Assembly (NCBI GenBank): GCA_037310415.1 | Contig: CP147780.1 | Location: forward strand, 1,920,001-1,984,000 | Direction of reading: 5' to 3' | Source: Candidatus Atabeyarchaeum deiterrae | GTDB lineage: Archaea; Asgardarchaeota; Atabeyarchaeia; Atabeyarchaeales; Atabeyarchaeaceae | DNA: 64,000 nt | Shown here: piece by piece, positions 7,245-52,464 of the stretch | How the letters are laid out: every line of letters begins with the position of its first letter | Position numbering within the stretch: the first letter of the stretch is position 1 | The notes under the pieces: generated by a model | The model's input: the letters and a program-made list of their open reading frames with translations, nothing else | Databases searched by the model: none | What the model was told of the DNA's origin: nothing | Made by a program: the position numbers and the translations under genes

Positions 7245-7312
7245 GCGATATTCTCATCCTGCAAGCAAATCCTCCACAACGATATTTAAGGTCCCTTCCA
7301 TTAGCCGCGGTA

Positions 7313-8540: not shown

Positions 8541-8546
8541 CCCTTA

Positions 8547-9359: not shown

Positions 9360-9426
9360 GGATCATGATCTCCAGTCCCTTGAGTAAAAACGCGGGTGGT
9401 GTGTCTGTCGATATTCTTTGAGCCCG

Positions 9427-10044: not shown

Positions 10045-10212
10045 GTTTCTGTCACCTTCCTGCAGCGGGATCAGTCTCTCTCTACACCTTGGCCTCGGAT
10101 TAGACTGTTTTCGTATATTAGTTTCCCTCAGTAAGGGAAATAACGAAATATCAAAAAACTCCAATGCTAAGTCTCGGCCCATTTTGGGGGGATGTGCTTA
10201 TCCAATCTTCTT

Positions 10213-10746: not shown

Positions 10747-10994
10747 AGAGCCTCAACCCCCAGCAACTCTCCTAGCACATAATTGGAGGCAGACGTGTCT
10801 CTTCCCCTTCCGTTAATAGGAAGGATCGGATGAAGTGATATCGGCTCATCTCGATGCTTCATCAGATGAGTTTCAGTGTGAGAAACGTAGTTCAAACCGT
10901 TCTATATGGGTTACGTTGCACTTGAGAATCTCGCAGTTTCAAAACCTACTCAGCGTCGGCAGAAACCTAATTCCCAGAATGGGGTTTGGGTGTC

Positions 10995-11996
10995 TCACTG
11001 TGGTTGTTTTTGCCCGCACCGACTGCAGTAGGATGAATCTGAGTCTAACCGCGCCTTGCATCGAATACAGTACTTCGCCGTGTGTGTTACAGAATCCTTT
11101 TTCGACACTACTATAATGAAGCGTCCAATATCCGAAGAAGTTACCTCAGAAGAAAGTTTTTCGGAAGGCGTTGAGACTGTAGGCGTTGAGGTCTGCCCGC
11201 TTGCCGCCCGAATCGTCGCGATCACCCGCGCGAGAGACGACGAAAACGCTTTCGATGCAGTGGCACCTGACGTCCCCAGAGTTTCCGCATCTTGCAGAAT
11301 CCCTGGCGGCTTCACGGACTTGGGCATGACAGAAAGTGGGGGAGCCATGAGCACAATTGGTGTGGAAGAAGACAATGGATTCAGATCTTCCCTCACATGA
11401 GTGATTATCTTATTCAAGGCAATCATGAGTTCGACAACAAAGTCCTGAGGACTGAAATCAGTTTCGATTTCCTTTCGCCATTTCTTGTGGTCATTGGTAA
11501 GATCGAATTCCACTTTGCCCAAAACAAAGTCATTCTTCTTTTCATATTCCAAGATGATTGCGCTGCTTAAGTGCCATAAGTCTCTTTGTCTCATAGCGAG
11601 AAGAGATTTGCACAGGTCTTCATCAGAAAGGATCCTCTGGAACCCTGGGGAAGTCATGGGTGTCATTGTGAATACTTCAACAATGTCACCAACTTTGGTT
11701 GACTTACGTATCCGAATCTCCCCCGAGCCAGCTCCACATTTATTTGGGTCAAAGATCAACGGGATGGGAAACCAGAGTCTGACCTTCGTATAGATTCCAG
11801 CATTAATGAACGCGATAACGGAACCCCATTCTCGCAACCTAAGAATCCTCGACGACAGCGGCTTAGACGACAACCCGACATTTGTGACCAGTACTGATAC
11901 CGAATCAACGACGGTGGATGCCTCTGAGGAGACACCCACTTCGCTCGGGTCAATCGCTTCCGACCTCGCAAAGGAAAGTCTCATGTCATTTCTCAT
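10995..11996 (-). CDS. Hypothetical protein with a Ser/Thr-rich linker and a C-terminal double zinc ribbon
   Basis: YCIRCKA..YCSRCG at the C-terminus. The frame stays open about 35 codons upstream without a canonical start, so the start is uncertain. Confidence 0.65.
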   Translation of the reverse strand: MRNDMRLSFARSEAIDPSEVGVSSEASTVVDSVSVLVTNVGLSSKPLSSRILRLREWGSVIAFINAGIYTKVRLWFPIPLIFDPNKCGAGSGEIRIRKSTKVGDIVEVFTMTPMTSPGFQRILSDEDLCKSLLAMRQRDLWHLSSAIILEYEKKNDFVLGKVEFDLTNDHKKWRKEIETDFSPQDFVVELMIALNKIITHVREDLNPLSSSTPIVLMAPPLSVMPKSVKPPGILQDAETLGTSGATASKAFSSSLARVIATIRAASGQTSTPTVSTPSEKLSSEVTSSDIGRFIIVVSKKDSVTHTAKYCIRCKARLDSDSSYCSRCGQKQPQ

Positions 11997-12224
11997 TACG
12001 TCAGCGAAGAACTCCTCAAGTCTTGACTTGGCGAAGCGTCTTGGAAGATACTCCTCAAAGACTAGTGGACTTGCGCTCGCCTTTGTCGCCCCCGGTTCGC
12101 CTCATATCAGGTCTCTACGGGAGAGGGAAATAAGATTTTCTGTCCTCGTTATGCGCATTAGGGAAAGTCGAAGCCTTTGCAGGCCAAAATCTTCATGGTA
12201 CAGATGTGCATCTGAGGAGTCGCA

Positions 12225-36437: not shown

Positions 36438-38633
36438 CTAGGGTGATACTTCCACCCAGATGGGTCCAGAGTAGGCGGTGCGACCATTTTGCCCAACTAC
36501 GCGAATGAGGTAGAAGTCAGCTCCTCCAGTGTTTAGCGTGCTCGGGTCTATCGGATTGTCACTGTACTGGTTTATGTAGTAATGCCCATCCCTTAGAACA
36601 CAGTTACCAATCCCGTAGGACGTACCTGTGACTGGAGCGGTGTCGAGGAACGTAAGGTTTGCCACCGGCCCGTTTATTGATATCTCCTTCAGCAGGTTAC
36701 CATTCTTGAAGATCTGGACAGAAGCCTGCCAGTCGGGTACCCAGTTGGGGGTAACCGACGCTGCATAGGGCCGTATGTTGGCTGCGGGGGCTCCGTCTTG
36801 CGCGATTACGACGCTTATTTCCCTAGCAAGAGACGCATTCGTTACCGTCAGCGTTGAGCCATCGCCGACACGCGTTCCATTGATAGTGAAGCTAATGTAA
36901 GGTCTTCCATGGTCGGAAGACGCATAGATCCGCTGGTTTTCTAGGCCGTCGAAAACTGAATTTCGGGTAAGGTTGAATGCGTAAACCGCTGTGATCCCTC
37001 CCGGGCAAGGCATAGAAATCCGGTTATGCCACGTAGTCCAAGGTCGTTGGTGACCTATGTAAGCATCAGTATGGGCGAGTGAGTGCCCTGGATGCCCGTC
37101 ATGCTCGTCAGCCGAAGCATACATGACCACTCGGTAACCCATCTTGAATGCATCCATGATGCAGGTTCCAGGCGTGTACACAGGCGGTGCATCGCCACAA
37201 GGACGGATGACAAATGGATCGCGTTGTTCGAACAAACTCTCTCCATGGACAGACGTGACCTCTGCGGTCTTGACGTACTTAGGGTTGATGTAGGTCCAGT
37301 CCTCTATGTATCCTAGCTTCGTTGTGTGGTGAGGTAGCGCTAGCGCCTGACAGCCGGTGGAGCCTGTGAAATCATCGAGAAGGTTCCAAAGTTCCTGTGT
37401 GGTGGGAATTGTCATGTACGAGATAATGGGGTTTCTGGGCAACTTGTCTCCGCTGAAGATGCATGTGTAGTGTCCTGTGCTTGTCTGAGTCCATTCAGTC
37501 CCTTGGAGTGCAACGAAGCTCCCAGGATCATAGACGAGATTCGTAACCCGTTCAGAGTAATCCAATGCGCCAAGCTCGAACAGCATGGTTTCACCATGAT
37601 CGGTCAGCGCATCATAGTCCAAGCAAGCCACATATCTTGCATAGTAGTAATGGTGCTCAGGTGTTCCTGTTCCGTCAGAGAGCGCTGAGTGGCCGTGGAC
37701 ATCCCCCCAGTAGATCTTGGGAACAGAACTTGAGAAATTGGCAACTAAGATGGGATTGCTCCAGTAGGTGTTTCGAGTAACAGAGTCATTCACGAGAAGA
37801 TAGTGGATTCCAGGAGTGTTTATCATAGCTGCGAATACGTGGAGTCCGTTGTCTCTCCCATCGCGGATCTCATACGCGATGTCGCTGCCGAAGGGCTGCC
37901 CAGTGAACATGTAGTCCCCAGGCAGGGTTGCATTCACCGAAGGGATTTGATTGAGCGTGGTGAGATTGAATGACCTTACGGAGAACTGGACAGTCCCCCA
38001 GTAGACCGCGCTTAGCCTCTCATAGGCATCCCATGCTTCGACAGTGACTGGAAAACTGGTACCAACGTCCACAGTAGAGGGTGAGTGGACCCAGAGCAGA
38101 CGAGGGTTATTGTCAAGCAATACTCCAGGGTTTATGCTGGCTGTGCACCAGACTACTGTCGGCACCAAGACGACCATCAAGGCGAGGGAAACCTTAGCAT
38201 ATCTCGGCATCTTCTTACCCAGCCTGCCAAACCACCCTGGTGCTGTGCCCTTCCGCGGGCTTCGCCTCTGCCAGAGCTTGAACACAGCAAACGTGGCGAG
38301 GTAGGCTACGATTATGCTAGGCCCGATCGTCATTGCCAAAAGGTTAGACGAAATGTTCGAGCCAACCGACGGATCACTTAGAACATTCAGCACAAGCGTA
38401 CTGATTCCAGCTGTCCACGCCAAAACAAATCCGCCAATTCTCCAAACGGTCCTCCGAAGGAAAATGAAGTAGAGTATCCCGATAGCCAGTCCAATGAAAC
38501 TTAAGAAGAAAAAGGTTGTAGTATAGAACCCATACACGAACGCAACTAGCAGGAGGATCTGGGACGTCCACCGCAGTCCTCTGTGACTTGGTGCAGGGAG
38601 CTTGGTTGACACTTTGTGCGAACCTCTGTGCAT
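36438..38633 (-). CDS. Membrane-anchored DUF3604 (PHP-like metallohydrolase) protein
   Basis: About 5 N-terminal TM helices, then WGDVHGHSALSDG, TDH, EWT, PHH, HGES and DEHDGHPG. Confidence 0.8.
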   Translation of the reverse strand: MHRGSHKVSTKLPAPSHRGLRWTSQILLLVAFVYGFYTTTFFFLSFIGLAIGILYFIFLRRTVWRIGGFVLAWTAGISTLVLNVLSDPSVGSNISSNLLAMTIGPSIIVAYLATFAVFKLWQRRSPRKGTAPGWFGRLGKKMPRYAKVSLALMVVLVPTVVWCTASINPGVLLDNNPRLLWVHSPSTVDVGTSFPVTVEAWDAYERLSAVYWGTVQFSVRSFNLTTLNQIPSVNATLPGDYMFTGQPFGSDIAYEIRDGRDNGLHVFAAMINTPGIHYLLVNDSVTRNTYWSNPILVANFSSSVPKIYWGDVHGHSALSDGTGTPEHHYYYARYVACLDYDALTDHGETMLFELGALDYSERVTNLVYDPGSFVALQGTEWTQTSTGHYTCIFSGDKLPRNPIISYMTIPTTQELWNLLDDFTGSTGCQALALPHHTTKLGYIEDWTYINPKYVKTAEVTSVHGESLFEQRDPFVIRPCGDAPPVYTPGTCIMDAFKMGYRVVMYASADEHDGHPGHSLAHTDAYIGHQRPWTTWHNRISMPCPGGITAVYAFNLTRNSVFDGLENQRIYASSDHGRPYISFTINGTRVGDGSTLTVTNASLAREISVVIAQDGAPAANIRPYAASVTPNWVPDWQASVQIFKNGNLLKEISINGPVANLTFLDTAPVTGTSYGIGNCVLRDGHYYINQYSDNPIDPSTLNTGGADFYLIRVVGQNGRTAYSGPIWVEVSP

Positions 38634-39367: not shown

Positions 39368-40678
39368 CTAACCCATGCTGCTTGATTCCTTCGGAAAGAT
39401 TGGAAACGTGATTCCTCCCACCGGGAATATCAACACGCCGGCCTTGTTTCCCACTATGTCCCTGACTTGCGCTATCGCGTCACTGATCTTGGGGTAGTTC
39501 CTTATGTACATACTACCCGCCTGTTGGTCTGTCACTCCCGGAGAAGAGAGAACCACGTTATTACTCCTTAGTACTGAGACCCACAGGTACGAGTTACACC
39601 ATTCTTCTATGGGAACATTCAATGTTTCAATCAGCTTCGCAACATCTGCATCCTTTAGCCCGCGAACAAACTTGATGAAGTCCTCGGATTTCATGATCGG
39701 TTTCGGCAACGTTACTGTGCCAGCGCCTTCTGGGCAGGGTGAGATGCATAGAATCGTCCCGTTTTCCTTTGTGGCTTGCATTGTGTTTATTATTGACTTA
39801 CCTGACTGCCTAATGTCTATGTCTAACGGAAAAGCGCTTGTGATTACGATGTCTGCGCGAGCAGGAACGTCAACGCCATATATTTCGGACGCTACTTTGA
39901 CGCCTTCTCTGTGTGCTAAAATAGGATCGCCTGCAACGACCTTCACGATCTCCTTCTTATCGTTTAGAACCGTGTTCACTATGAAATCTAAGCCGCAGAT
40001 TTTTCCAGCTTCTTCTAGGTCCTTTCTAACAGGGTTCTCCTCAGGCGAAACACCTATCTGTGACCTAGGCTTTGTGACGAGTTTGTGGTTTGACATGATC
40101 GTATTTATGCCAGTTATTCCTGGCAGAACAGCTTTGTGTCCGCCACCGAAACCAGCAAAAACATGCGGTTCAATTGTCCCAAGAGCTATCTTCAGGTCAG
40201 CCTCATAGTATTCTCTATTGACAGCGATGGGTGTTCCGAAGGATGTCTTGCCTAGTTCAATGAGATCGTTTTGCAGGTCAGAGTTTATTGCCCGTATTCT
40301 TGGTATAATGTTCCTTCCAAGTCGTGCCTCCATATCCAAGGCTTCAAGTTTTCTGTGAATCGCGCAGCCGAATATCACAAACATCTTTTCAGTGTTTGCT
40401 CCCGCACCAAGTAATTCATCAAGCAGCTTTGGCATTATTTTGCTGATCGGGGTCGGTCTACTTATGTCATCGACTATTATGGCTATCTTTTTGTTCCTCG
40501 TAACTAGTTCGGATAGTCTCTTGGATCCGATTGGCCGCTCAATAGACATCTTGATTTCCTTCTCCTCGTCTGGGACCTTTGATGCAGGCTTTGGTGCCGC
40601 AGACTTCAAGATTTCCCATCCTTTCGGTAGGTCAAAGCCTATCTTGCTGCTGCCGAAAGGGACTTCGCATCGCACCAT
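39368..40678 (-). CDS. larA: LarA-family nickel-pincer-dependent 2-hydroxy-acid racemase/epimerase
   Basis: DDISRPTP, IHR, EPHVFAGFGGGHKAVLPG, NH and QSGK motifs. Confidence 0.85.
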   Translation of the reverse strand: MVRCEVPFGSSKIGFDLPKGWEILKSAAPKPASKVPDEEKEIKMSIERPIGSKRLSELVTRNKKIAIIVDDISRPTPISKIMPKLLDELLGAGANTEKMFVIFGCAIHRKLEALDMEARLGRNIIPRIRAINSDLQNDLIELGKTSFGTPIAVNREYYEADLKIALGTIEPHVFAGFGGGHKAVLPGITGINTIMSNHKLVTKPRSQIGVSPEENPVRKDLEEAGKICGLDFIVNTVLNDKKEIVKVVAGDPILAHREGVKVASEIYGVDVPARADIVITSAFPLDIDIRQSGKSIINTMQATKENGTILCISPCPEGAGTVTLPKPIMKSEDFIKFVRGLKDADVAKLIETLNVPIEEWCNSYLWVSVLRSNNVVLSSPGVTDQQAGSMYIRNYPKISDAIAQVRDIVGNKAGVLIFPVGGITFPIFPKESSSMG

Positions 40679-40716
40679 TTACGGGTCACCAGCATGCTCC
40701 AGAAGCAAATAGAGTT

Positions 40717-41415
40717 TCATGGGAGTGGGACTTCTTTCTCGAGTTCCGAGAAGTCCTTTCTACCCTTCTTAACCTGTTCAAACCACCAAGAGTCTGCCTT
40801 AGCCAGCTCCTTGGCTTTCTTGATTATTCTCTCTGCATGTTCGGGTGGGATTACAACAACGCCATTTTGATCTCCGAATACCATGTCGTTGGGCCGGACC
40901 GTTTGTCCACCACACTTTACGACTGTCTGTAGCTCGGTTATTTTCATTCTTCCCCTGATGGATGTTGCGACTCGTCCTCTGGCCCACATTGGAAACCTGA
41001 GTTCGACGACTTGAGCTATGTCTCTCACGGCACCATCAACCACAGCGCCAACGACACCTTTCTGTATCAACATTGATGAGGTGACTTGGCCAAGTAGCCC
41101 CGCTGGCATCACGTCAGAGGAGTCAATGACAATGAAGTGTCCTGGTACTATCTTGTCGGCGAGCTTAAGAATGTCCATGACCATCTGCTCTCGAAATACT
41201 TCACCCCGCTCAAGCGGAGCGAACTTTAGTGTTGCAGCGATGCCGGCTGTCTTCGCTCCAGGCCAGACTTCTTGGATCCCTTGATCCATCAACATAGGTT
41301 TGATCCCTAGAGTATCACAGGCATCGCAAATCGCGGGTACATATAGCTTCTTTAGTTCCTCCAAAAGAGACTTGTTAATTGAGGGCTGGACGGTTGAATC
41401 AAACTTGACGGACAA
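40717..41415 (-). CDS. RraA/HMG aldolase family protein
   Basis: ICDACD, G.V.DGAVRD and PNDMVFGDQNGVVVIP motifs. Confidence 0.88.
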   Translation of the reverse strand: MSVKFDSTVQPSINKSLLEELKKLYVPAICDACDTLGIKPMLMDQGIQEVWPGAKTAGIAATLKFAPLERGEVFREQMVMDILKLADKIVPGHFIVIDSSDVMPAGLLGQVTSSMLIQKGVVGAVVDGAVRDIAQVVELRFPMWARGRVATSIRGRMKITELQTVVKCGGQTVRPNDMVFGDQNGVVVIPPEHAERIIKKAKELAKADSWWFEQVKKGRKDFSELEKEVPLP

Positions 41416-41468
41416 AGGCTATTCTACCCTCCTTGGTGAGGACAATAACTCTGCGTTATCTCCTTTAT

Positions 41469-43376
41469 TTAGATGAGGTTAGCAACTTGCTTTGCTGCTT
41501 CATCTAACCCCAGTTCCACTAGCTTCTTGGGTGTTGGTATGCCGTTGCTGTTCCAGCCGCGGCAACCATAGTACTCATCAAGCATTCTCTCGACGTCAGA
41601 AACTTTGCCTGCTGCTGGTCCCTCTTTCTTTGGCTCCATTAGCCTCTTTGGAAGCCTGTCATCTTTTCTTCGGATACCACACAGAACGTTGAAACATCGC
41701 TCGAGATTGGTTATGCGCTCGCCTACTTTCATGAGGTCGGATACCTTCGTTTCATGACCGGTCAGCAATGTATAGTGCTCTGCGAGGGTCGTTAGAACTG
41801 GCTTGGGCCATCTCTCGCTTGGAGTAGTTGCAGGGTGATGACATATCCCAATACTGTTGGCTATCTCGGCGATGTCTTGTCCTAATGCAACCAGTTTAGG
41901 CTTTCCTTCATACGAGAAGTGAGAGGTCCCCTTCTTATAGTCAGTCACTTCAGGGTAACTTACTGCCCAGTATAAGCAAATATCCTCAACCCTTGAGTGC
42001 AGGTGGCATGCTCCTCTGTTCACCACTGCGTACTGCAGCGCTAATCCAACTTCTGCTCTTGGGTCATGCATTGAGGCTTCTAGCCCTTTCACGTCAGTTG
42101 TAAGACTCTCTGCGCCTCTTCCTATGATATTTGCCGCTCTCCTTGAACCTTCTGCTAAGACCGCCCCGAAACCGCTTCTGTGAGCGATTTTTCCTATCAT
42201 CTCTATTACCGATTCAGCGTTGCCCCAAGTCAACTCAATTCCATATGTGTCGGTTTCACTTATTATCCCGCGTTCATAACCTTCCATGGCAAAGGCTATG
42301 GCAGAGCCGCACGTGATCGTGTCGACCCCATACTCGTCACACAGTTGGTTGCATTTACAGATAGCTTCGATCGGAGTGAGCAGGCACATCGTTCCGAAGG
42401 CTCCTATGGTTTCATACTCCGGTCCCCTCACATTCTCTCCCACAGCGAACGGTCCCTCCTTCACAGTAACTGCTCTCCTGCAACCCAATGGGCAATTATA
42501 GCAGTACTCAACATTTGTGGTAATCTTTTTCAGAGCCTCAAGATCCACGCGCCTAAGATCCTTCCATTTCCCAAGGGAGAAGTTTTTAATCGCTAGACTA
42601 CCAAAGCTGTCTGCTACAGGGATTACTGCGGCGGTTCCATAATCGTGAAAGAAGGCCGTAGAACTGACTCTCTTACTGAGGACGTCATCCCTTACTGCTT
42701 TGAATATCTCGAGTGCGCTTTCATTGAATTTCTCTGAAGCTACCGGCACATGCTTGTCTCCTCTCACGGCTATCGCTTTAAGGTTCTTGGAACCCATGAC
42801 GGCGCCCATGCCTGTTCTCCCAGCAGCGCATCCTTTGTCATTAATTATGCTAGCATATCTTACCAGGTTCTCACCGGCGGGACCAATACATGCAACCCTC
42901 AATTTCTTGTCTCCAACATCACTTCGTATGGCATCCTGAGTTTCGGTTGTAGTTCTGCCCCAGACATCCTTGGCATCGGCAATCCTGTTCTCATTGTTTG
43001 TGATGTACAGGTAGACTGGCGTCTGAGCTTTTCCTTCGATTATTATCCCATCGTGCCCCGTAAATCTGAGTTCTGGCCCCCAAAAGCCTGATGCCGTCGC
43101 ATGACCCCATATGCCGGTTAGTGGTGACTTCGATGCTACGGCGTACCTGTTACCGGCTGGGAAACTTGTTCCACAAAATGGTCCTGCTGCAAAGATCAAC
43201 TTGTTCTCCTTAGATAGCGGATCAACATCCCATCCTATCTCGTCGTAAACGTAGTGCGCAGCAAACCCACTCCCACCTATGAACTTCAGAGCAAAATCAT
43301 CTTTGATCGGCTCGTCGGTTATCTTCCGAGCTGACAAGTCTACTCGGAGCATCTTTCCAAAATAGCCGCCTTTCAT
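41469..43376 (-). CDS. aor: Tungsten aldehyde:ferredoxin oxidoreductase family protein
   Basis: SKSPLTG, CIGPAGEN, AAGRTGMGAVMGSKNLKA, CYNCPLGC, GPEYET, DPR and RGACH. Confidence 0.92.
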   Translation of the reverse strand: MKGGYFGKMLRVDLSARKITDEPIKDDFALKFIGGSGFAAHYVYDEIGWDVDPLSKENKLIFAAGPFCGTSFPAGNRYAVASKSPLTGIWGHATASGFWGPELRFTGHDGIIIEGKAQTPVYLYITNNENRIADAKDVWGRTTTETQDAIRSDVGDKKLRVACIGPAGENLVRYASIINDKGCAAGRTGMGAVMGSKNLKAIAVRGDKHVPVASEKFNESALEIFKAVRDDVLSKRVSSTAFFHDYGTAAVIPVADSFGSLAIKNFSLGKWKDLRRVDLEALKKITTNVEYCYNCPLGCRRAVTVKEGPFAVGENVRGPEYETIGAFGTMCLLTPIEAICKCNQLCDEYGVDTITCGSAIAFAMEGYERGIISETDTYGIELTWGNAESVIEMIGKIAHRSGFGAVLAEGSRRAANIIGRGAESLTTDVKGLEASMHDPRAEVGLALQYAVVNRGACHLHSRVEDICLYWAVSYPEVTDYKKGTSHFSYEGKPKLVALGQDIAEIANSIGICHHPATTPSERWPKPVLTTLAEHYTLLTGHETKVSDLMKVGERITNLERCFNVLCGIRRKDDRLPKRLMEPKKEGPAAGKVSDVERMLDEYYGCRGWNSNGIPTPKKLVELGLDEAAKQVANLI

Positions 43377-43571: not shown

Positions 43572-44981
43572 TTGTCAAAAGATAAATCAAAGAAAACTAA
43601 GGAATTAAGTATACCTGGCAGAGGACGAACAAACGCAATCATGAACCTCGCCAACATCACCGACGCCGCTGATGGACAGATTTTTCCCGCAGTCTACAAG
43701 AACGTGCAAGATGAATTCGCCGCTAGAACTCCATCGCAAACATTGGGCTTCGCATCGCTCGGCTTAATCACAGCGTCGAGATCAATTCTCCAGTCAGTTT
43801 CGACACCATTGTGGGGATGGTGGAGCGACAGGCACTCAAGGAAGAAGATTCTTGCAATCGGGTGCTGGTTCTGGGCAATATTCACTATGTTGACGGCACT
43901 GTCAGTAGGATACGTTGACATGCTATTGTGGCGAACTGTAACAGGGATCGGCCTCGCCGCAATTATCCCAACTACAGGCTCGCTAGTCACGGACTACTTT
44001 TCGCCCGAAAAGAGAGGCAGAGCCTTCGGAGTGCTGGGTCTTACGGGAGGAATGGGAGCCTTAATTGGCACCCTCTTCATGACGTTGTCGATACCCGAGG
44101 ATCCGCACGTATTGATCTACGGCATGGTCGGTTGGAGGTTCGGCTTCATCGTCGTGGCGATAGCAACTGTAATCATTGGAGTGCTCGTGTGGGCACTCGT
44201 GAAGGACCCGCTGCGTGGTGGACTTGAACCTGAGTTAACGAAGATCCTGACTGCACAGAAGGCAGAGAGGTACAAGGTAAAACGCTCAGACTACATTAAG
44301 ATCCTAAAGAAAAGAACGTTCGTCATGATAATGCTTCAAGGAGTTGCTGGAACCATCCCCTGGTCAGGATCGATCCTATGGATGATAGCATGGTTCGAAA
44401 TCATTGGATTCTCAGCTCCCGTTGCTGGAATAATGTTCCTATTCCTAGCCATAGGCGGCTCCACAGGAGTCGCTTTTGGAGGCTGGATTGGAGACAGAGC
44501 AGCAAGATGGCGTCCAAACAGTGGCAGAATCATCGTGGCGCAGATATCAGTTCTTACAGGTATAATCCTAAGTTTCGTGATCTTCATGTTGATTCCAAGA
44601 ACCACCGATTCGTTCTCCCTCTACACTCTCTTTGGGTTCATTATGGGTCTACTCATAACTTGGGCTGGCCCAGCAAACAACGCAATATTCAGCGAAATCT
44701 TCGAGCCCGAGATTAGAGGCTCGGTCTTCTCAGTCGATCGCGTATTCGAAGGCTCAGTCGGGGCAGCGGGAACACTATTGGTCGGTCTCTTTGCAGACTA
44801 CCTTCTAACTAGCGGAGCTCCCAATGCAGCGACCGCACTGGGCAACTCGATGTTTGCGATCGCTGTGATTCCATGGATTGCCTGCCTGATCTTATACTCA
44901 CTAGTATACAAGAGTTATCCAAAGGACAAGGCAACGCTCAGACAGACTATGGAAAACAGAAGAAAGGAACTGGAGAAATAG
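43572..44981 (+). CDS. MFS transporter (spinster-like)
   Basis: About 12 TM; WGWWSDRHSRKK motif A; DYFSPEKRGRAFG. Confidence 0.9.
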   Translation: MSKDKSKKTKELSIPGRGRTNAIMNLANITDAADGQIFPAVYKNVQDEFAARTPSQTLGFASLGLITASRSILQSVSTPLWGWWSDRHSRKKILAIGCWFWAIFTMLTALSVGYVDMLLWRTVTGIGLAAIIPTTGSLVTDYFSPEKRGRAFGVLGLTGGMGALIGTLFMTLSIPEDPHVLIYGMVGWRFGFIVVAIATVIIGVLVWALVKDPLRGGLEPELTKILTAQKAERYKVKRSDYIKILKKRTFVMIMLQGVAGTIPWSGSILWMIAWFEIIGFSAPVAGIMFLFLAIGGSTGVAFGGWIGDRAARWRPNSGRIIVAQISVLTGIILSFVIFMLIPRTTDSFSLYTLFGFIMGLLITWAGPANNAIFSEIFEPEIRGSVFSVDRVFEGSVGAAGTLLVGLFADYLLTSGAPNAATALGNSMFAIAVIPWIACLILYSLVYKSYPKDKATLRQTMENRRKELEK

Positions 44982-45042
44982 GACACGACAGTAACTCGGT
45001 TCCACATCTTTCTTTTTTTGTGCATGCAAGCGTCCGCTCGTC

Positions 45043-45672
45043 TCAACCTTCAAACAAAGCCCTTATGTGTCTAACACCTTCCACTGCATTTGCCGCATAA
45101 TCGTCTGCACCTAGTGCTTTTGCAAGTTCCATGTTCAGTGATGCGCCACCAGCAATAATCTTGACCTTGTCTCGGAGGCCTGCATCCCTCAGAGCCTTGT
45201 CGACTGAAGATATCTCATTTACTGTCGTGCTGAGCAGAGTGCTCAGAGCCACAACCCTAGCGCTTGACTCTCTCACGGCTTGAACTATCTTCTCCTTGTC
45301 ACAATCGACCCCTAAATCAATGATGTTGAACCCTGTCGACATCAACACCGAAATCAAAATGCTTTTTCCGATATCGTGACTGTCTCCTTTCACAGTTGCC
45401 ACGACGATTGTCTCATTCCTGCCTGCCTCTCCAGACTTTAGGTGTGGTGTGAGTACGGCGACGGCTTCCTTCATCGCCTCGCCTGCTGAGACAAGTTCGA
45501 CGAGGAAGTATTCCATTGTTTCGTATAGGCGTCCCACTTCATTCATACCTGCCGAGAGGGCCGTAAGGATGTCCTGGGGATTAGCGCCTGCATCAAGTTC
45601 TGCTTGGACTGCACTACCGATATGGTCGACGTTCAGTTCGACAAGCATCTTAGTTATCTTCTCTAGCGTCAC
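45043..45672 (-). CDS. Corrinoid (B12-binding) methyltransferase protein, MtaC/MttC-like
   Basis: Helical cap (GMNEVGRLYE..YFL), GDSHDIGK (DxHxxG), LGVD, IAGGA and GADDYA. Confidence 0.92.
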   Translation of the reverse strand: MTLEKITKMLVELNVDHIGSAVQAELDAGANPQDILTALSAGMNEVGRLYETMEYFLVELVSAGEAMKEAVAVLTPHLKSGEAGRNETIVVATVKGDSHDIGKSILISVLMSTGFNIIDLGVDCDKEKIVQAVRESSARVVALSTLLSTTVNEISSVDKALRDAGLRDKVKIIAGGASLNMELAKALGADDYAANAVEGVRHIRALFEG

Positions 45673-45809
45673 TTGAAGACACTTCCTGTCCCATGAAGGT
45701 CTCCCGATAACCACATACTTTATCTTTACGATATCTGCATACTACTTCCCCAGATTCATACCTAAGAGGTTTGCTTTCCGAGAAGTCACGGACACAGGAA
45801 GTGGATGCG

Positions 45810-48500
45810 ATGACGAAATCTGAGAAACCCTTCGGTTCAGGCTACTTTGGTGAGTGGATTGAGGATGAATTCGGGCTACCAGCATATCGCTACACCTGCA
45901 ATCAGATTAACGATCCGAAAGCAGCAACCCCGATGAATGAAACTTGGCGTATTAAAACTGATCACGTTCATCAGGTTGGAAATGACAGGCTCGTGGGCGT
46001 CGCGTCCAACTATGGACACGTACAGGTTCGACAAGACGAGGGCAGCCCCAAGTTCCTAAATGATTACGACCCAGATCACCTGCAATTTGCGGGTGGATTT
46101 GGCTACCTAACAGATGGAACGAACACGCTGAGTACATATTACCCAGGGAACGCGGAGTCATTCGACCGCATATTTGGAGTTGGATACTATAGAAAGACTG
46201 TAAAGGGAAACGGCCTAGTAGCCGATCAAATCATCTTTGCCCCTTATGGCGACGACCCCTTGCTCATCTCCCAAGTGACAGTAAAGAACGAACGGGAAGA
46301 ACCCACTGATCTGATATGGATTGAGTACTGGGGCTGCCAAATCTACCAATTCTCATACAAGTCTACGATGATGTCAGTTGCCACAAAACGACCTCCAATG
46401 GAGTCTCGGCGAAGACTCGGCAGGCGTTTTGAACACGAGATTAGCACGATTCTAAAGAACCACGTGCTGGTCGACAAGAAGCGTTTCACAAACCGTGACC
46501 AGGCTGACGAGCAAACTTGGAAGCTTCTCAACCAATACTTGGCTACCCCAGCTGGAAAAGCGCTCACTGGTGGACCAGTAGAGTCGCCGGTCAAAGAGGC
46601 GGTTCTTGAAGACTTGTCTCCTCCAACAGTCTTCCTTGCATCCTTGGATGCACCCTTCGATGGCTTTGCTGTCGATGCCTCGTCCTTCTTCGGGAAAGGT
46701 GGTGTGAAGGCCCCTGACGGTCTGAAGAAGCCCTTAAGTCAGCATGCTGCGACTCCAAACGCCGAGAAGGGATTGTTCATCGAGCGTAAGCTTCACTTGA
46801 ACTCCAGAGAAAGCAAGACAATGTGCTTCGCTTTTGGGTATCAGCCTGAGGGACCCGAGCTTCACACACTCCTACTCAAGTACGAGCACGACTCGGCAGG
46901 TCTGCTTCGCCATTCGAGCGAACGCTGGAAGAGTGACCGAATCAAGCTTGAACTGGAGGACGACCGCTGGGTCGATCGTGAGCTCACGTGGCACAATTAC
47001 TACCTTAGAAGCAATCTCACATTTGACAGCTTCTTCAAAGAACATATCCTATCCCAAGGCCACGTCTACCAGTATATTATAGGGTTTCAAGGAGCCGCCC
47101 GCGACCCTCTTCAGCATGCCTTGCCGTTCGTCTACAGTGAACCAGAGATCGTCAAGAATATTATCCGATACACTCTAAAAACTGTGACTCCTGAAGGGAG
47201 AATCCCCTATGGCATCGCGGGTAGCGGAATGTACATGCCGGCGCCATTCAAGCCGAGCGATCAAGAAATGTGGATGCTCTGGTTGGCAAGCGAGTATGTT
47301 CTGGCGACGCGAGACCTGAAGTTTCTGAATGAGGAGGTTCCAACTTATCCACTGTACGGTCCAAAAGCAGGGCGGGCGCGAGTAAAAGATCTTCTGCAAC
47401 TCTGTTACCGACACTTGGCTGAACACATTGGGACTGGGAAACATGGGCTGCAGCGTTTGAGCAACGGTGATTGGAATGATGCCGTGGTTGTCGGTTTCGT
47501 CCCAGAGAAGCAGCGAGACGCCGTCGCAGAAGTTGGAGAGAGCGTTCTAAACGCAGCGATGGCAAGCTACGCTCTAGAAATCTATTCCCGACTGCTAAGC
47601 TATGCCGGAGAGGCGAAGTTGTCAATTGATTCTCAGAAACGTGCGCAGGCACAACGTGAAGTAGTGCGTTCTCAGTGGACTGGAAAATGGTTCAAGCGCG
47701 CGTGGCTCACCGAAGAACTTGGATGGATTGGCGTTGAAGAAATGTGGCTAGAACCACAACCCTGGGCTATTATAGGCAGAGCAGCCGACGCAAGACAAGC
47801 GAAAACGCTAGTACGATCCATCGACGATGCTGTACGAAAACCATCAAAAACAGGAGCCATCATTCTCAATAAACCAGTCAAAAACATGCAAGGAGCTCCT
47901 GGTACCGGCACAAATGCAGGTATTTGGCCATCAATAAACGGCACACTCATATGGGCTTTGGCGCTTGTGGACCGCGATCTAGCATGGGACGAATGGAAGA
48001 AGAACACGCTCGCAATGCACGCCGAAGCATACCCCGACGTATGGTACGGCATTTGGAGCGGACCCGATACATATAACTCAGAATTCTCCAAGACTCCAGG
48101 CCAGGTGGACGTGGAATTGCTGGGCGTGAAATGGACTGACTTTCCAGTGATGAACATGCATCCACATGCATGGCCTCTTTACACGATTGCGAAGCTTATG
48201 GGCGTGGAATTCTCAGTTCAAGGCGTTGATCTTGCGCCATCCCTGCCGAAAGGTAAATTCAGATTCGCTTCACAGCTCCTCGACCTTGAGAAATCAGCTA
48301 CGGGGTACTCGGGCAAGTACGCTCCAAAGCTCAAGGGAACATGGACCATAACGCTCAAACTCGACCAAAAGGAACTTCAGCGAATCTCCAAGTTAGAGAT
48401 AAATGGGACGGGCGGAAAGTTTGTTCGCGAAGGCGACCGCATCGTTTTTCATGGAGAAAGTGAACCCGACAAGCCGCTAAGGTGGGTTCTGGAATATTGA
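45810..48500 (+). CDS. GH94-like glycoside phosphorylase/hydrolase ((alpha/alpha)6 barrel)
   Basis: About 900 aa; QGAARDPLQH, SDQ..W, NGDWND, GESV, Q.WAI and NAGIW motifs; no signal peptide. Confidence 0.75.
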   Translation: MTKSEKPFGSGYFGEWIEDEFGLPAYRYTCNQINDPKAATPMNETWRIKTDHVHQVGNDRLVGVASNYGHVQVRQDEGSPKFLNDYDPDHLQFAGGFGYLTDGTNTLSTYYPGNAESFDRIFGVGYYRKTVKGNGLVADQIIFAPYGDDPLLISQVTVKNEREEPTDLIWIEYWGCQIYQFSYKSTMMSVATKRPPMESRRRLGRRFEHEISTILKNHVLVDKKRFTNRDQADEQTWKLLNQYLATPAGKALTGGPVESPVKEAVLEDLSPPTVFLASLDAPFDGFAVDASSFFGKGGVKAPDGLKKPLSQHAATPNAEKGLFIERKLHLNSRESKTMCFAFGYQPEGPELHTLLLKYEHDSAGLLRHSSERWKSDRIKLELEDDRWVDRELTWHNYYLRSNLTFDSFFKEHILSQGHVYQYIIGFQGAARDPLQHALPFVYSEPEIVKNIIRYTLKTVTPEGRIPYGIAGSGMYMPAPFKPSDQEMWMLWLASEYVLATRDLKFLNEEVPTYPLYGPKAGRARVKDLLQLCYRHLAEHIGTGKHGLQRLSNGDWNDAVVVGFVPEKQRDAVAEVGESVLNAAMASYALEIYSRLLSYAGEAKLSIDSQKRAQAQREVVRSQWTGKWFKRAWLTEELGWIGVEEMWLEPQPWAIIGRAADARQAKTLVRSIDDAVRKPSKTGAIILNKPVKNMQGAPGTGTNAGIWPSINGTLIWALALVDRDLAWDEWKKNTLAMHAEAYPDVWYGIWSGPDTYNSEFSKTPGQVDVELLGVKWTDFPVMNMHPHAWPLYTIAKLMGVEFSVQGVDLAPSLPKGKFRFASQLLDLEKSATGYSGKYAPKLKGTWTITLKLDQKELQRISKLEINGTGGKFVREGDRIVFHGESEPDKPLRWVLEY

Positions 48501-49540
48501 ATTCACGGGATCTCACACTATCTGCTATCGAAGGGGTTCCTGAGAGAGTCCCATTTAACCCATTCATCATGCACCTCGCCGCGACCACTGAGGGGATCAA
48601 CTACAGTCAAGTCTACTGTCGGGACGCGCAGGCGCTTGCTGAAGCGCACATCAAATGTGCAAAGACCTTCGGGATTGACCATGTTAACGTCTCCACAGAC
48701 GCTTACAGGGAAGCCAGCGCTTGGGGAGTTGAGGTCAATTTCTCAGGTCATACTCCAGTTGCATCAAAACAACTAAGTCTTCAAGACTTCGACTCGCTCG
48801 ACAAACCTGATCTCAATGCCGATCAACGAGTTCAGAACCGTGTTGAAGCTGTGAAGCTGCTCGACGCCAAAGTTGGTCATGAGCAGTGCATCGTCGGATG
48901 GATAGAAGCGCCTTTCGCCGAGATCTGTTGCCTCTTCGGCATGATGGAGGTGCTGAAACTAGGACGGAGGTCAGATTGGAATAGTCTGGTCAAAGCACTT
49001 ATGAAACGTATTCTCCCCGTTCAACTTGAGTTCGCTAAGATGCAGATCGAAGCAGGGGCAGACATCATTGGAGCTGGCGACTCTGCCGTCTCCCAAATAG
49101 GTCCCAAGAGATACGGAGAAGCTTGCCTCGAAACTACTCAGGAGCTTTTCCGATCAATTGGAAAGCATGTGCCGGTTCTCTATCATGCGTGCGGAGACAA
49201 CTCAGGCGTAGACAAGGAGGGGCACGATATGCTGAAGCTCCTTGCAAGCTCCGGGGCCTCCATCTTGGATTTAGATTTTCAAGTCAGCCTAGCGAAGGCG
49301 AAAAGTAAGATTGGTGACAGAATATGCATTAGAGGAAACGCAAATACCAGCCTCCTCGGAAATCGGATGTATGGGACCGAGGAAGTCGCCCACGAATTCA
49401 CTCAGACAATAGAAGCTGGAAAACCAAACGGGCGATACATGTTCGCGGCAGGCTGCGAATGGCCGTGGGAACCTCTCGATGTCGTAGCAAGAAACCTAGG
49501 TATCGCCAAGGTCCTCAATGACAGACTGGGGAGATATTGA
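48497..49540 (+). CDS. UroD/MtaA-CmuA family methylcobamide methyltransferase
   Basis: Zn ligands HACG and AAGCE; TTG start overlaps the upstream TGA (TTGA). Confidence 0.85.
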   Translation: MNSRDLTLSAIEGVPERVPFNPFIMHLAATTEGINYSQVYCRDAQALAEAHIKCAKTFGIDHVNVSTDAYREASAWGVEVNFSGHTPVASKQLSLQDFDSLDKPDLNADQRVQNRVEAVKLLDAKVGHEQCIVGWIEAPFAEICCLFGMMEVLKLGRRSDWNSLVKALMKRILPVQLEFAKMQIEAGADIIGAGDSAVSQIGPKRYGEACLETTQELFRSIGKHVPVLYHACGDNSGVDKEGHDMLKLLASSGASILDLDFQVSLAKAKSKIGDRICIRGNANTSLLGNRMYGTEEVAHEFTQTIEAGKPNGRYMFAAGCEWPWEPLDVVARNLGIAKVLNDRLGRY

Positions 49541-50716
49541 ATGAACTCTAGAGAACGAGTCATGGCTTCATTGAATCACCAAGAACCCGACATGATCCCT
49601 ATTGACCTCGGAGGAAACCAATCGGCTATTCACATTAATGCTTACAAGAATCTCCTGAATTATCTAAAGATTGAGGACGGGAATATTCGATACTGTGACT
49701 TTATTCAGCAAATCGCGTATCCATGCGAAGAGTTGTTGAAGCGCTTCGACGTTGACATACGGTGGTTGCGCCCACCGGCTTCACTTCTCCCTGAAGACTA
49801 CATTCCTCAGGTTGAGGGGAAATATCGGGGAATCTTCGATCAGTTCGGCGTATTCTGGGGAGACAGCGCTGAGAAGGACGTTAAGGATATTCTCTTCTAC
49901 GATCCATGCATCCACCCACTCAGCGACGCGAAGACCGTCCAAGAAATAAGGGAGTATAATTGGCCAGACGGCGCAGACAAGAAACCGCTCAGAGGACTGC
50001 GCGAACAAGCCAGATGGTTGAGAGAGAATACTACCTACGCTATTGCCGCGCCCCCGTTGGGTTGCATCTATGAATACGCAACTTTCCTATTCGGGTTCAA
50101 AACGGCGCTAAAACACCTACGGATAAACCCTGAACTCATCGTCGCCGCAATGGAAGAACTTGAGAAATACTGGACAGCCTATGCAACCACATACCTAAAT
50201 GAAGTCAAATTCGGCAACCAACACTATGTCGACGTCGTCGCAATCAACGGAGATTTAGCTGTGCAAAGTGGTCCGATCATGAATGTAGAGAAGGTCTACT
50301 CGCGATTCATTAAGCCTATAGAACACCGCTTTGCACTAAGGATACACGAACTTGCCAAGGTCAAGATCAGCTATCATTGTTGTGGGTCGATAGTCCAGTT
50401 CATACCACACTTCTCGGAGATTGGATACGACGCGGTAAACCCAGTGCAGGTTACTGCTTATGACATGGAGCCCTGCAGCCTGAAAAAGCGGTTCGGAGGG
50501 ATTATCACCTTCTGGGGGGGACTATGTGATACACAGCACACGCTTCCCTTTGGTTCTCCTGAGCAAATCCGTAATGAGGTGTCTCACAACATCACCTGCT
50601 TCAAAACTGGTGGAGGATACATTGCGTCAAATATCCACAACATGACCGCCGAGGTACCACCTCAAAACATAGCTGCAATGCTTCTTGCTGCAAGAGAATT
50701 GAGGCACTGTGACTAG
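49541..50716 (+). CDS. UroD-family protein (second methyltransferase-like subunit)
   Basis: MNSRERV..LNHQEPD, YHCCGS, NPVQ, FWGG..DTQ and HNM; starts immediately after the previous stop. Confidence 0.85.
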   Translation: MNSRERVMASLNHQEPDMIPIDLGGNQSAIHINAYKNLLNYLKIEDGNIRYCDFIQQIAYPCEELLKRFDVDIRWLRPPASLLPEDYIPQVEGKYRGIFDQFGVFWGDSAEKDVKDILFYDPCIHPLSDAKTVQEIREYNWPDGADKKPLRGLREQARWLRENTTYAIAAPPLGCIYEYATFLFGFKTALKHLRINPELIVAAMEELEKYWTAYATTYLNEVKFGNQHYVDVVAINGDLAVQSGPIMNVEKVYSRFIKPIEHRFALRIHELAKVKISYHCCGSIVQFIPHFSEIGYDAVNPVQVTAYDMEPCSLKKRFGGIITFWGGLCDTQHTLPFGSPEQIRNEVSHNITCFKTGGGYIASNIHNMTAEVPPQNIAAMLLAARELRHCD

Positions 50717-51021
50717 TAATTGGCAGCCTCAAGAACAAGTGCGGTGCTCAGTGAATTCGGCGAAACCCTTGAAATTCTTGAGTTCGAGACTCGATGTCGA
50801 GAAAAGAATAATCAAAGGAAAGCACAAGAAGTCATAGACAGCTGCCCACTGGGATCCTTTCTGGAAAAGCTTTTTACAAAATGTCCCTATTTCTTACATA
50901 GCATTCTTGTAGTTGAATTTCTCTCAGCCACGTTGTTCGCAGGCAAGGTCTGCGTCGCGTTGGTGTTGACCATTAGGAGAGAACATGAGCTATATCAAAT
51001 TCAAGGAGACGATGGGATCAA

Positions 51022-52464
51022 ATGACCTCGCTAGTTAGAAAGCAAGTCTATGACTATATTGATGAAAACCTCCCCGAACACCTAAAACGCCTGCAAGAAC
51101 TCGTTAGGCAGCCATCAATCTCAATGGAAAACAAAGGAATAAGAGAATGCGCAGAACTTGTGAAGGCATATTTCCAAGAGATCGGCTGCAACGAGACTTC
51201 AATTGTGGAAACCTCTCTGCACCCCGTAGTATACGGCGAATATGATGCGGGAGCCGACAAAACTGTCATTGTATACATGATGTACGATACAATGCCAGTG
51301 GAGGAACCCGGGTGGATAGTTGCGCCGCTAGATGGAAAGATCACTGACTTCGAATCATTTGGCAAATGCCTCGTTGCCAGGGGATCCTACAACACTAAGG
51401 GTCCCCTCGCTGCATTCATCAATGCATGTAGATCTATCAGGGAAGCAGACAAGGAGCTGCCAGTCAACCTGAAATTTGTTGCTGAAGGAGAAGAGGAACT
51501 CGGCAGCAAGCATCTACCTCAATTCATCGAGAAGTACAAACGCAAGCTTCAGGCGAGCGACGTAGTTTTCTTTCCAAGCACGGATCAAGACGGAAGCGGC
51601 AAGATCATAAACCAACTCGGGGTAAAAGGCATAATCTACTTCGAACTTGAACTTGACGGCAAGAGCTGGGGCTTCGGACCTACGGAGTGCGACATACATG
51701 GAAGCCACAAGGCCTGGGTGGACAGCCCAACGTGGAGGATGATAAATGCGCTAAGCTCAATGACGACACCCGACGGCAACAAGGTCCTCATAGAAGGATT
51801 CTACGATAACGTGATCCCTCCAAGTTCAGACGACTTGGAATTAGTACAGAAACTAACTAAGACATTTGATGAAAAGCCAATGAAGGAGATGCTCAGCGTC
51901 AAGAAATTCATAGACGACTCTCGGGGAAAAGAAGCGCTTCTAAAGTACCTGTATACCCCGTCGCTGAATATCAACGGAATATGGTCAGGTTACACGGGAC
52001 CTGGGACAAAGACAGTCCTCCCATGGAAGATAACCGCGAAAGTCGATGTCAGGCTTATCCCCAACATGACTGTGAAAGAGGTGCTACCGAAGATCAGAAG
52101 ACACCTTGACAAACATGGATTCAAGGAAATAAGAATAGTCGAACTTGAAGAAGGATACGGATGGGCGAAAACAAGCGTGAGACATCCAGCTGCGCAAGCG
52201 CTGATAAAAGCATACAAGGATTTCAACTATCCACTGGAAATCTGGCCGCATATAGCCGGAAGCGTCCCATTCAGCATGTTCAACCGCGAGCCTCTCAATT
52301 TGCCATTCATCATGGGCGGAGTCGGGCACGGAGGGAGATCACACTCTCCAAACGAATACTTGGTGGTAGAAGAAGGAGGAAAGGTCGGAGGATTGGCAAC
52401 CCTGGAGAAGTCCTATGCTGCAATCCTCTACAGCCTGGCTGAGATGAAAAGACCTGCACGATAG
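51022..52464 (+). CDS. M20/M25/M40 family metallo-hydrolase
   Basis: YDT.P, ARG, EGEEELGS, HGS and HSPNE; some metal ligands are substituted (MYD, NTKG). Confidence 0.88.
   Translation: MTSLVRKQVYDYIDENLPEHLKRLQELVRQPSISMENKGIRECAELVKAYFQEIGCNETSIVETSLHPVVYGEYDAGADKTVIVYMMYDTMPVEEPGWIVAPLDGKITDFESFGKCLVARGSYNTKGPLAAFINACRSIREADKELPVNLKFVAEGEEELGSKHLPQFIEKYKRKLQASDVVFFPSTDQDGSGKIINQLGVKGIIYFELELDGKSWGFGPTECDIHGSHKAWVDSPTWRMINALSSMTTPDGNKVLIEGFYDNVIPPSSDDLELVQKLTKTFDEKPMKEMLSVKKFIDDSRGKEALLKYLYTPSLNINGIWSGYTGPGTKTVLPWKITAKVDVRLIPNMTVKEVLPKIRRHLDKHGFKEIRIVELEEGYGWAKTSVRHPAAQALIKAYKDFNYPLEIWPHIAGSVPFSMFNREPLNLPFIMGGVGHGGRSHSPNEYLVVEEGGKVGGLATLEKSYAAILYSLAEMKRPAR

Follow-up and report, generated by a model that had tools for sequence, protein, structure and literature searches.

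What does a gene for an enzyme of the GH94 fold do among genes for B12-dependent methyl transfer? The question is raised by a 64-kb stretch of the genome of Candidatus Atabeyarchaeum deiterrae, an Asgard archaeon whose habitat is plant-rich wetland soil (PMC11291895). The genome is closed and measures 2.76 Mb, and the stretch, called the window below, comprises positions 1920001-1984000 of its contig C1. In the window, a gene for a corrinoid (B12 carrier) protein stands head-to-head with a GH94-like gene, which is followed directly by genes for two proteins of the UroD superfamily, URO1 and URO2 (Table 1). An earlier reading made from the letters of this locus (the original prediction) had proposed that a methylated glycoside is imported through an adjoining MFS transporter, cleaved by the GH94-like enzyme and relieved of its O-methyl group through the corrinoid protein. 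We read the locus as a corrinoid methyltransferase system joined, in some relatives by gene fusion, to a glycoside enzyme, a partnership without precedent. Whether the four genes make up one catabolic module, in which an imported methylated glycoside undergoes B12-dependent demethylation coupled to cleavage by the GH94-fold enzyme, we regard as an even call. Of the original proposal, the gene linkage and the association with B12 and carbohydrate contexts stood, the membership of the transporter fell, and phosphorolysis became doubtful.

The GH94-like gene is linked to UroD genes across Asgard archaea and Chloroflexota

A search with the GH94-like family found 351 related loci, 80 of which were kept for comparison of their neighbourhoods. 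Orthologues of URO1 and/or URO2 (58-81% identical) flank the GH94-like gene in 17 of these 80 loci, usually together with the corrinoid orthologue; the 17 are of Atabey, Thor, Hermod and Helarchaeota types, and the window is an eighteenth case. The genes of the module occur in at least five orders across Atabey-, Thor-, Hermod-, Hel-type and other Asgard loci. In the Atabey type, the corrinoid gene is divergent from the run GH94-like-URO1-URO2. The Thor and Hermod type has a run GPH-URO3-corrinoid, where URO3 is a third UroD-family gene, divergent from GH94-like-URO1-URO2-TrmB/MEDS, and the Hel type has URO1-URO3-corrinoid divergent from GH94-like-URO2. Further loci read GH94-like-URO3-URO2-URO1, GH94-like and then URO2 on the opposite strand, or GH94-like-corrinoid. 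Families f1, f6, f12 and f28 have URO2 immediately next to URO1 and the GH94-like gene; in family f9, which is of Loki type, a URO2-URO1-URO3 trio is mostly apart from the GH94-like gene, which there has a UroD clade of its own, a sulfatase and a GPH symporter alongside. A tree of the UroD-family neighbours showed five clades adjoining the GH94-like gene (URO1, URO2, URO3, a Loki type and a Chloroflexota UroD-SCP2 type), with one bacterial sister gene each for URO1 and URO2, flanking an Anaerolineales GH94-like orthologue.

We counted the neighbours within 5 kb of the GH94-like gene at 43 archaeal, 9 non-Acidobacteriota bacterial and 30 Acidobacteriota loci. UroD-family genes were present at 31 of the 43 archaeal loci and corrinoid genes at 15 of the 43; at the non-Acidobacteriota bacterial loci, the corresponding counts were 6/9 and 1/9. 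From the 10 UroD genes in 2.76 Mb, we estimate that a UroD neighbour would be met by chance at about 4% of loci, and the arrangement is therefore more than chance. Furthermore, among 301 Asgard genomes, the GH94-like gene and URO2 occurred together in 48, the GH94-like gene alone in 5, URO2 alone in 15 and neither in 233, so that URO2 was present in 48 of the 53 genomes with a GH94-like gene; related genomes are not independent, and these counts are descriptive. Clear orthologues of URO2, taken as those of 56% identity or more, were found in about 60 of the 301 genomes.

Gene fusions point the same way. In a Chloroflexia genome, a 1451-residue protein (L021:9974-14329) carries the GH94 sandwich, the GH94 catalytic domain, a URO-D domain and an SCP2 domain in one frame, and this domain arrangement recurs in a metagenomic protein (P0108). 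Because the two proteins are 70% identical over 1444 residues, the fusion is conserved rather than an artefact of assembly. Related Anaerolineales encode the UroD-SCP2 part as a gene of its own that adjoins the GH94-like gene. No fused form longer than 1569 aa was found, a negative result of little weight. In addition, a URO2 relative (P0140, matching the URO2 profile at 9e-93) is fused to C-terminal B12-binding_2 and B12-binding domains. The first fusion thus connects the GH94-like enzyme with UroD proteins, and the second connects the URO2 family with corrinoid chemistry.

A methyltransferase cassette could have come to lie next to a glycoside enzyme by chance, with no pathway shared between them, in a genome with 10 UroD genes and about nine genes for corrinoid proteins of the methyltransferase type, several of which lie in pairs, and whose distant second GH94-fold paralogue stands alone. 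This explanation, already disfavoured, is very improbable given that the linkage survives rearrangement in several Asgard families and in Chloroflexota, that two fusions are conserved and that co-occurrence is strong. The same rearranged synteny, co-occurrence and two fusions bear out the proposal that the GH94-like gene is functionally tied to UroD genes and, in this lineage, to the corrinoid gene.

The GH94-like protein has the fold and catalytic aspartate of GH94 enzymes

Two Pfam domains of GH94 enzymes matched the protein above cut-off (PF17167, 5.3e-21; PF06165, 3.8e-6), and its best phmmer match in the PDB was a cellobiose phosphorylase (9e-13), covering part of the protein only. A Foldseek search with its AlphaFold model (pLDDT 78) matched cellobiose, chitobiose, laminaribiose and cellobionic-acid phosphorylases over the whole length with TM scores of 0.53-0.70 and 15-18% identity; the cellobiose and cellobionic-acid phosphorylases ranked highest, and for the cellobiose phosphorylases, the scores were 0.61-0.70 over about 900 columns. 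The model shows the four-domain layout of GH94, with an N-terminal beta-sandwich, a helical linker, an (alpha/alpha)6 barrel and a C-terminal beta domain.

The motif GDWND (G553-D557, with D557 as its final aspartate) is invariant in 26 homologues and aligns with ADWND of the solved enzymes; we take the general-acid aspartate of this W-N-D motif to be Asp490 of C. gilvus cellobiose phosphorylase. The phosphate-binding residues of the latter are presumably Arg351, His666 and Thr731. Of these three, His666 alone could be placed: at its position (the IFCHNN segment), the GH94-like family has an invariant serine, Ser708, in an alignment of about 17% identity in which the mapping is uncertain. The phosphorolysis that had been proposed for this enzyme is made doubtful by the replacement of the phosphate-binding histidine, although the catalytic aspartate motif is invariant. 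By fold and motif, the protein looks like an active glycoside-cleaving enzyme of the GH94 fold that may or may not be a phosphorylase.

The protein belongs to a distinct subfamily that is unusually conserved, with 50-80% identity over about 900 residues; the nearest public relative, the chromosome of Atabeyarchaeia-1 (CP147779), encodes a GH94-like protein 77% identical to that of the window. Members occur in Njord/Atabey-, Thor-, Hermod-, Sif-, Hel-, Hod- and Loki-type Asgard archaea and, outside the Asgard group, in Chloroflexota, Acidobacteriota and a few other bacteria. In a role of its own, apart from the methyltransferases, the enzyme possibly acts on a glycoside of an acidic sugar, an idea that fits the fold match to cellobionic-acid phosphorylase, the anion-sugar-like MFS transporter next door and the neighbouring AOR/RraA set.

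At Loki-type loci (L026, L027, L018, L041, L047 and others), the neighbours of the GH94-like gene encode an S1 sulfatase, a GPH symporter, FAD oxidoreductases, a GNAT protein, a HAD hydrolase and the UroD clade of its own, a setting that hints at a sulfated glycoside substrate in the marine Loki lineages. The genome of the window contains a second GH94-fold gene of 907 aa, at 7957-10680 on the minus strand of locus L084 (G000:C1:2137000-2155000, where G000 denotes this genome). It is very distant (tree branch 2.9), has no UroD or corrinoid neighbour and was rejected as part of the system.

URO1 resembles MtaA, and URO2 is a candidate substrate:corrinoid methyltransferase

In URO1, H230, C232 and C320 are invariant across 13 orthologues and reproduce the H-x-C...C zinc motif pattern of MtaA. 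A search of the PDB with the URO1 profile placed MtaA (4ay7) on top at 4e-17, with true UroD close behind. For URO2, whose orthologues share invariant H279-x-C281 and H366, sequence and profile searches against the PDB gave nothing better than E = 0.014, and Foldseek ranked its model closest to MtaA, then UroD, then MetE. Among the PDB matches, there was no structure of an aromatic O-demethylase MT1 enzyme (MtoB, OdmB, VdmB or MtvB; MT1, methyltransferase 1). The NCBIfam models of MtaA/MtbA scored 66.5-78 bits with URO1, against cut-offs of 235-600, and 31-35 bits with URO2. Identity with HemE is ruled out for both proteins by model TIGR01464 (75.8 bits for URO1, cut-off 303; no match for URO2). 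The URO2-type family is large, with 1376 cluster representatives at a threshold of E<1e-30.

According to the original prediction, no aromatic O-demethylase methyltransferase 1 (MT1) gene is present. This statement is misleading, since the UroD superfamily holds, in addition to the methyltransferase 2 (MT2) enzymes MtaA and MtbA, the MT1 enzymes OdmB, VdmB, MtvB, MtoB, CdmB and CmuA (PMC10418091, PMC13222342). Because O-demethylase MT1 enzymes belong to this superfamily, URO2 or URO1 could be an MT1, and we consider URO2 the candidate substrate:corrinoid methyltransferase. The roles of MT1 and MT2 may be split between the two UroD proteins; it is equally possible that the second role falls to an MT2 of the MtrH type from another part of the genome.

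Relatives of URO2 occur in carbohydrate loci

We sampled the genomic contexts of URO2 relatives at 34-41% identity. In one bacterial polysaccharide locus (L120:1-17173), three UroD genes are interspersed among genes for GH106, GH29, GH95, GH43 and four sulfatases and two rhaM genes, with no corrinoid gene within 8 kb. Another combines a LacI regulator, UroD, galactokinase, a second UroD, GH4 and a sugar-binding protein; an archaeal contig carries MTHFR, MtrH, a RACo activase, a CUT1-type sugar ABC transporter and UroD; a further locus consists of an amidohydrolase, UroD, AOR and an RraA-like gene; and a fifth had no informative neighbours. Aromatic-ring genes were found in none of the sampled loci. 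The contexts thus tilt toward carbohydrate as the methyl donor, and the locus with MtrH and the activase links the URO2 family to the machinery used by the Mto system (PMC8630106). Together with the B12 fusion of P0140, they connect the URO2 family to both B12 machinery and carbohydrate loci.

These contexts bear on another reading, in which the methyl donor is the aglycone: a plant phenolic glycoside (guaiacyl/syringyl) would be imported and deglycosylated by the GH94-like enzyme, and a UroD-type MT1 would then demethylate its aryl methyl ether, as happens in the Mto, Odm, Vdm and Mtv systems. The UroD superfamily includes every O-demethylase MT1 characterised so far (PMC10418091, PMC13222342), and aryl ethers are proven substrates of such systems (PMC8630106). 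Moreover, GPH symporters include aryl glucuronide carriers (NCBIfam 'glucuronide transporter'), the SCP2 domain of the fused forms suggests a hydrophobic ligand, a GH1 gene adjoins the GH94-like gene in some Loki loci, and the wetland soil is rich in plants (PMC11291895). We nevertheless consider an aromatic methyl donor improbable, since the relatives of URO2 lie in carbohydrate-only loci (with rhamnosidase, fucosidases, sulfatases, galactokinase, GH4 and sugar ABC genes) that are free of aromatic-ring genes, and since the Asgard loci showed no gene for ring processing.

The corrinoid protein is of the methyltransferase type, and an activase and candidate MT2 enzymes are encoded elsewhere

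The corrinoid protein combines the features expected in corrinoid methyltransferase systems, namely a cap domain (B12-binding_2, 1.6e-15), a Rossmann-type B12-binding domain (1.4e-21) and a DxHxxG motif, which had been noted before and which we located as DSHDIG at residues 111-116 of the open reading frame (ORF; DNA 45367-45384). It also matches the NCBIfam model 'methyltransferase cognate corrinoid protein' at 8.5e-45, below the cut-off of that model. Its orthologues are 61-78% identical and keep the same divergent position in Thor-, Hermod-, Hel- and Atabey-type loci.

Neither an activase nor a pterin methyltransferase is encoded within the 64-kb window. The expectation that the corrinoid reactivase and the enzyme for the final methyl acceptor lie outside it was correct, as both kinds of gene occur elsewhere in the genome. 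There is one RACo/RamA activase (G000:2742221-2743018; PF14574, 1.3e-96), and there are four MtrH-like genes, the nearest of which (G000:1912391-1913260) lies beside a UroD-corrinoid pair. A pterin-binding search of the genome gave one weak match.

With this UroD-corrinoid pair, the nearest MtrH-like gene makes up a second methyl-transfer cassette, three genes in a row situated 7-10 kb before the window (G000:C1:1909535-1913260), and its MtrH is a candidate shared MT2. The URO3 orthologue of this genome (G000, about 1204257-1205681) is divergent from another corrinoid protein gene and has no sugar genes around it; its neighbours (L083, corresponding to G000:C1:1196000-1212000, positions 4430-12110) encode a glycyl-radical (PFL-like) enzyme, DUF166, ATP-grasp and hydantoinase-like proteins.

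A proposed B12-dependent demethylation of methylated glycosides

If the four genes form one module, the imported glycoside would be cleaved by the GH94-fold enzyme, by hydrolysis or phosphorolysis, and a UroD-superfamily enzyme, most likely URO2, would move the carbohydrate O-methyl group to the Co(I) corrinoid protein. Two routes could lead on from methyl-Co(III). URO1, with its MtaA-type zinc site, might pass the methyl group to a thiol, or one of the four MtrH-like enzymes might pass it to a pterin and so feed one-carbon metabolism. The single RamA-type activase encoded elsewhere would keep the corrinoid reduced. We infer these reactions, the nature of the substrate and which of cleavage and demethylation comes first from the gene content, motifs, folds, linkage, fusions and contexts that we observed.

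A bolder version of this reading, which we hold tentatively and with somewhat less than even confidence, is that the system would be the first oxygen-free, B12-dependent carbohydrate O-demethylase. A GH94-fold enzyme and dedicated UroD enzymes, in some cases fused in a single protein, would then strip sugar methyl ethers of plant or algal polysaccharides, and the methyl groups would be fed into the Wood-Ljungdahl pathway of Asgard archaea and anaerobic bacteria. The candidate methylated sugars for such a demethylase are 4-O-methylglucuronate, 6-O-methylgalactose, 2-O-methylfucose or similar. In the literature on glycoside-enzyme-linked corrinoid demethylation, methylated sugars and Asgard O-demethylases, we found no paper describing this design, in agreement with the initial view that no archaeal system of the kind had been characterised; the paper on the Atabeyarchaeia has a GH94 call in a supplementary table and does not discuss the cluster.

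Several points weigh against demethylation of a glycoside by this module. First, demethylation of an aliphatic sugar ether is chemically harder than that of an aryl ether, and we know of no corrinoid enzyme that demethylates an aliphatic sugar ether. Second, neither URO1 nor URO2 comes anywhere near the NCBIfam cut-off of any named methyltransferase. Third, the expected conservation of GH94-like, UroD and corrinoid neighbourhoods held for the UroD linkage in Asgard archaea and Chloroflexota but failed in Acidobacteriota, where UroD-family and corrinoid genes were each found within 5 kb at 0 of 30 loci. The Acidobacteriota orthologues of the GH94-like protein are 52-57% identical; their neighbours are SDR, SIS, ROK kinase, UxuA, gluconolactonase, and PTE- and UlaG-type lactonases, and some of the loci include a short MetE-like gene, which belongs to the Pfam clan of UroD. 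Because these loci lack UroD and corrinoid genes, the GH94-like enzyme appears to have a role of its own without methyltransferases. Finally, many GH94-like/UroD loci have no corrinoid gene nearby (Loki type, Anaerolineales L081, L120, L124), and none was found within 8 kb of the Loki URO2-URO1-URO3 trio. At such loci, the carrier would act in trans, or some clades would work without one.

The loci without a corrinoid gene also speak for a reading in which the UroD proteins perform sugar chemistry that needs no corrinoid, such as zinc-dependent alkyl or thiol transfer or the decarboxylation of acidic sugars, and in which the corrinoid gene of this lineage has another role or serves one paralogue only. 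This would account for the 16 of 31 archaeal GH94-like/UroD loci that have no corrinoid gene within 5 kb, for L081, L120 and L124 and for the Loki trio; the association of the MetE-like gene of Acidobacteriota, in the same Pfam clan, with UxuA, gluconolactonase and the PTE-/UlaG-type lactonases would fit as well, as would the anion-sugar-type MFS and the AOR/RraA aldolase set adjoining the module in the window. We think corrinoid-free chemistry unlikely all the same: in 15 archaeal loci, the corrinoid gene has retained its divergent position; one member of the URO2 family is a fusion with a B12-binding domain; a relative of URO2 has genes for RACo activase, MtrH and MTHFR as neighbours; and URO1 retains the zinc triad of MtaA. 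Furthermore, corrinoid proteins and activases often act in trans, and about nine corrinoid genes are available in this genome.

Gene layout and neighbouring genes

The ORF and domain searches confirmed the five ORFs of the original prediction, as well as the TTGA overlap at 48497-48500, the 0-nt junction of URO1 and URO2 and the head-to-head spacer of about 137 bp (Table 1). The TTG at 48497, which we take as the start of URO1 because the N termini of its orthologues read MNSRDLTLSAI, overlaps the TGA stop of the GH94-like gene at 48498-48500, and the ATG of URO2 at 49541 follows the URO1 stop (49538-49540) with a spacing of 0 nt. We placed the corrinoid start at GTG 45672 because orthologous corrinoid proteins have 209 aa; paired with the GH94-like ATG at 45810, this start gives a divergent spacer of 137 bp. 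The spacer is partly conserved with Atabeyarchaeia-1 and contains two copies of a direct repeat, CGATAnCnnCATACT, at 45705-45719 and 45729-45743, which are 24 nt apart; the repeat CGATAnCnnCATACT may be the site of a regulator.

Table 1. Features of the locus (positions in the window)
Feature	Positions	Strand	Remarks
731-aa protein	36438-38633	-	Weak DUF3604 match
AOR / RraA-like aldolase / LarA-type run	39368-43376	-	Upstream of the MFS gene
MFS transporter, 469 aa	43572-44981	+	Pfam MFS_1, 5.6e-42; module membership doubtful
Methyltransferase-type corrinoid (B12 carrier) protein, ~209 aa	45043-45672	-	ORF open up to 45714
Divergent intergenic spacer, 137 bp	45673-45809		Presumed shared promoter region
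GH94-fold enzyme, 896 aa from ATG 45810	45810-48500	+	ORF open from 45771; PF17167, PF06165
URO1, MtaA-like UroD-superfamily protein, 347 aa	48497-49540	+	ORF open from 48482; URO-D, 1.2e-45
URO2, divergent UroD-superfamily protein, 391 aa	49541-50716	+	URO-D, 1.5e-15
101-codon ORF between URO2 and the M20 peptidase gene	50720-51025	+	No family match; probably no gene

The MFS transporter had been counted as part of the system. Its best NCBIfam match is the D-galactonate transporter subfamily (94.5 bits, cut-off 395), and a homologue stands beside the module in none of the 80 related loci, that of Atabeyarchaeia-1 included, so that its membership is doubtful. The Thor-type loci have instead a GPH-family glycoside symporter and, after URO2, a fusion of a TrmB winged helix with a MEDS (methanogen/methylotroph DcmR sensory) domain as regulator (L004:14619-16034, L092-L099), which is absent from the 64-kb window. 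The M20 peptidase gene and a beta-lactamase-fold gene were rejected as members together with the MFS gene, since none of the three is conserved beside the module in related loci, and the 101-codon ORF was rejected for want of a family match and of a counterpart in these loci.

Some of the other neighbours recur. The 731-aa protein with the weak DUF3604 match is found again near the module at L001:15029-17203 and L011:4166-6469 (immediately behind URO2 in Atabeyarchaeia-1, and in a Thor locus). An unrelated contig from a metagenome (L122:8001-14111) has a URO2-like gene beside AOR and an RraA-like gene, and in a Loki genome, AOR lies 4.4 kb from URO2 (L116:4411-11867). With such recurring AOR/RraA neighbours, enzymes of the URO2 type may be linked to a sugar-acid route resembling the nonphosphorylative Entner-Doudoroff pathway.

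Implications

Sugar methyl ethers block ordinary carbohydrate catabolism, and the only demethylases known for them, of the P450 type, need oxygen (PMC6292453). If methylated glycosides are the substrate, a corrinoid route would explain the anaerobic use of methylated hemicellulose, pectin and algal glycans, and nonmethanogenic methylotrophy would gain a new class of methyl donor in Asgard archaea, Bathyarchaeia-like archaea and Chloroflexota. In anoxic soils and sediments, methylated glycans would then be a source of methyl groups that has gone unrecognised so far, with a bearing on the competition with methanogens for methyl groups in wetlands. Moreover, a function would be in hand for a large uncharacterised branch of UroD proteins (1376 representatives) and for the conserved GH94-like family (351 loci).

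Comparison with known systems

The locus is like the O-demethylase systems MtoABCD (of Methermicoccus shengliensis and Archaeoglobus), Odm, Vdm and Mtv in having a DxHxxG corrinoid protein together with methyltransferases of the UroD superfamily (PMC8630106, PMC13222342). In the archaeal Mto O-demethylase, the part of MT2 is played by MtoA, a protein of the MtrH type (PMC8630106), and an MtrH-type MT2 and a RamA/RACo activase, as used in these systems, are also present in this genome, but outside the cluster. In contrast to those systems, the UroD proteins described here form clades of their own in the neighbour tree and fall below the cut-offs of the named models; their partner is a GH94-fold enzyme, fused to them in some bacteria, and their contexts are those of carbohydrates and not of aromatic compounds.

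With MtaA/MtbA/MtsA (PDB 4ay7), URO1 shares its fold family (UroD/MtaA) and an invariant zinc motif, H-x-C...C. The URO1 profile and the URO2 model both have MtaA as their best PDB match, whereas the NCBIfam scores are far below the cut-offs. The lineage also differs in that, to our knowledge, no use of coenzyme M has been found in it. The GH94-like enzyme likewise has the four-domain fold and the catalytic WND aspartate of the GH94 phosphorylases but is only 15-18% identical to them, has an invariant serine at the position of the phosphate-binding histidine and is itself 50-80% conserved across archaea and bacteria.

The type 1 mlp clusters of Kountz and Balskus (PMC10418091) are similar in combining several UroD paralogues with one corrinoid protein and no folate methyltransferase. 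They differ in having a Ram activase, no glycoside enzyme and a proposed role in methyl-sulfur or methyl-selenium metabolism (PMC10418091). Finally, the P450 6-O-methyl-galactose demethylases of marine bacteria (PMC6292453) have the same task that we propose here, the removal of an O-methyl group that blocks catabolism. These carbohydrate demethylases are, however, oxygen-dependent monooxygenases that release formaldehyde, with an unrelated fold and mechanism (PMC6292453), whereas the module of the window would transfer the methyl group to a corrinoid.

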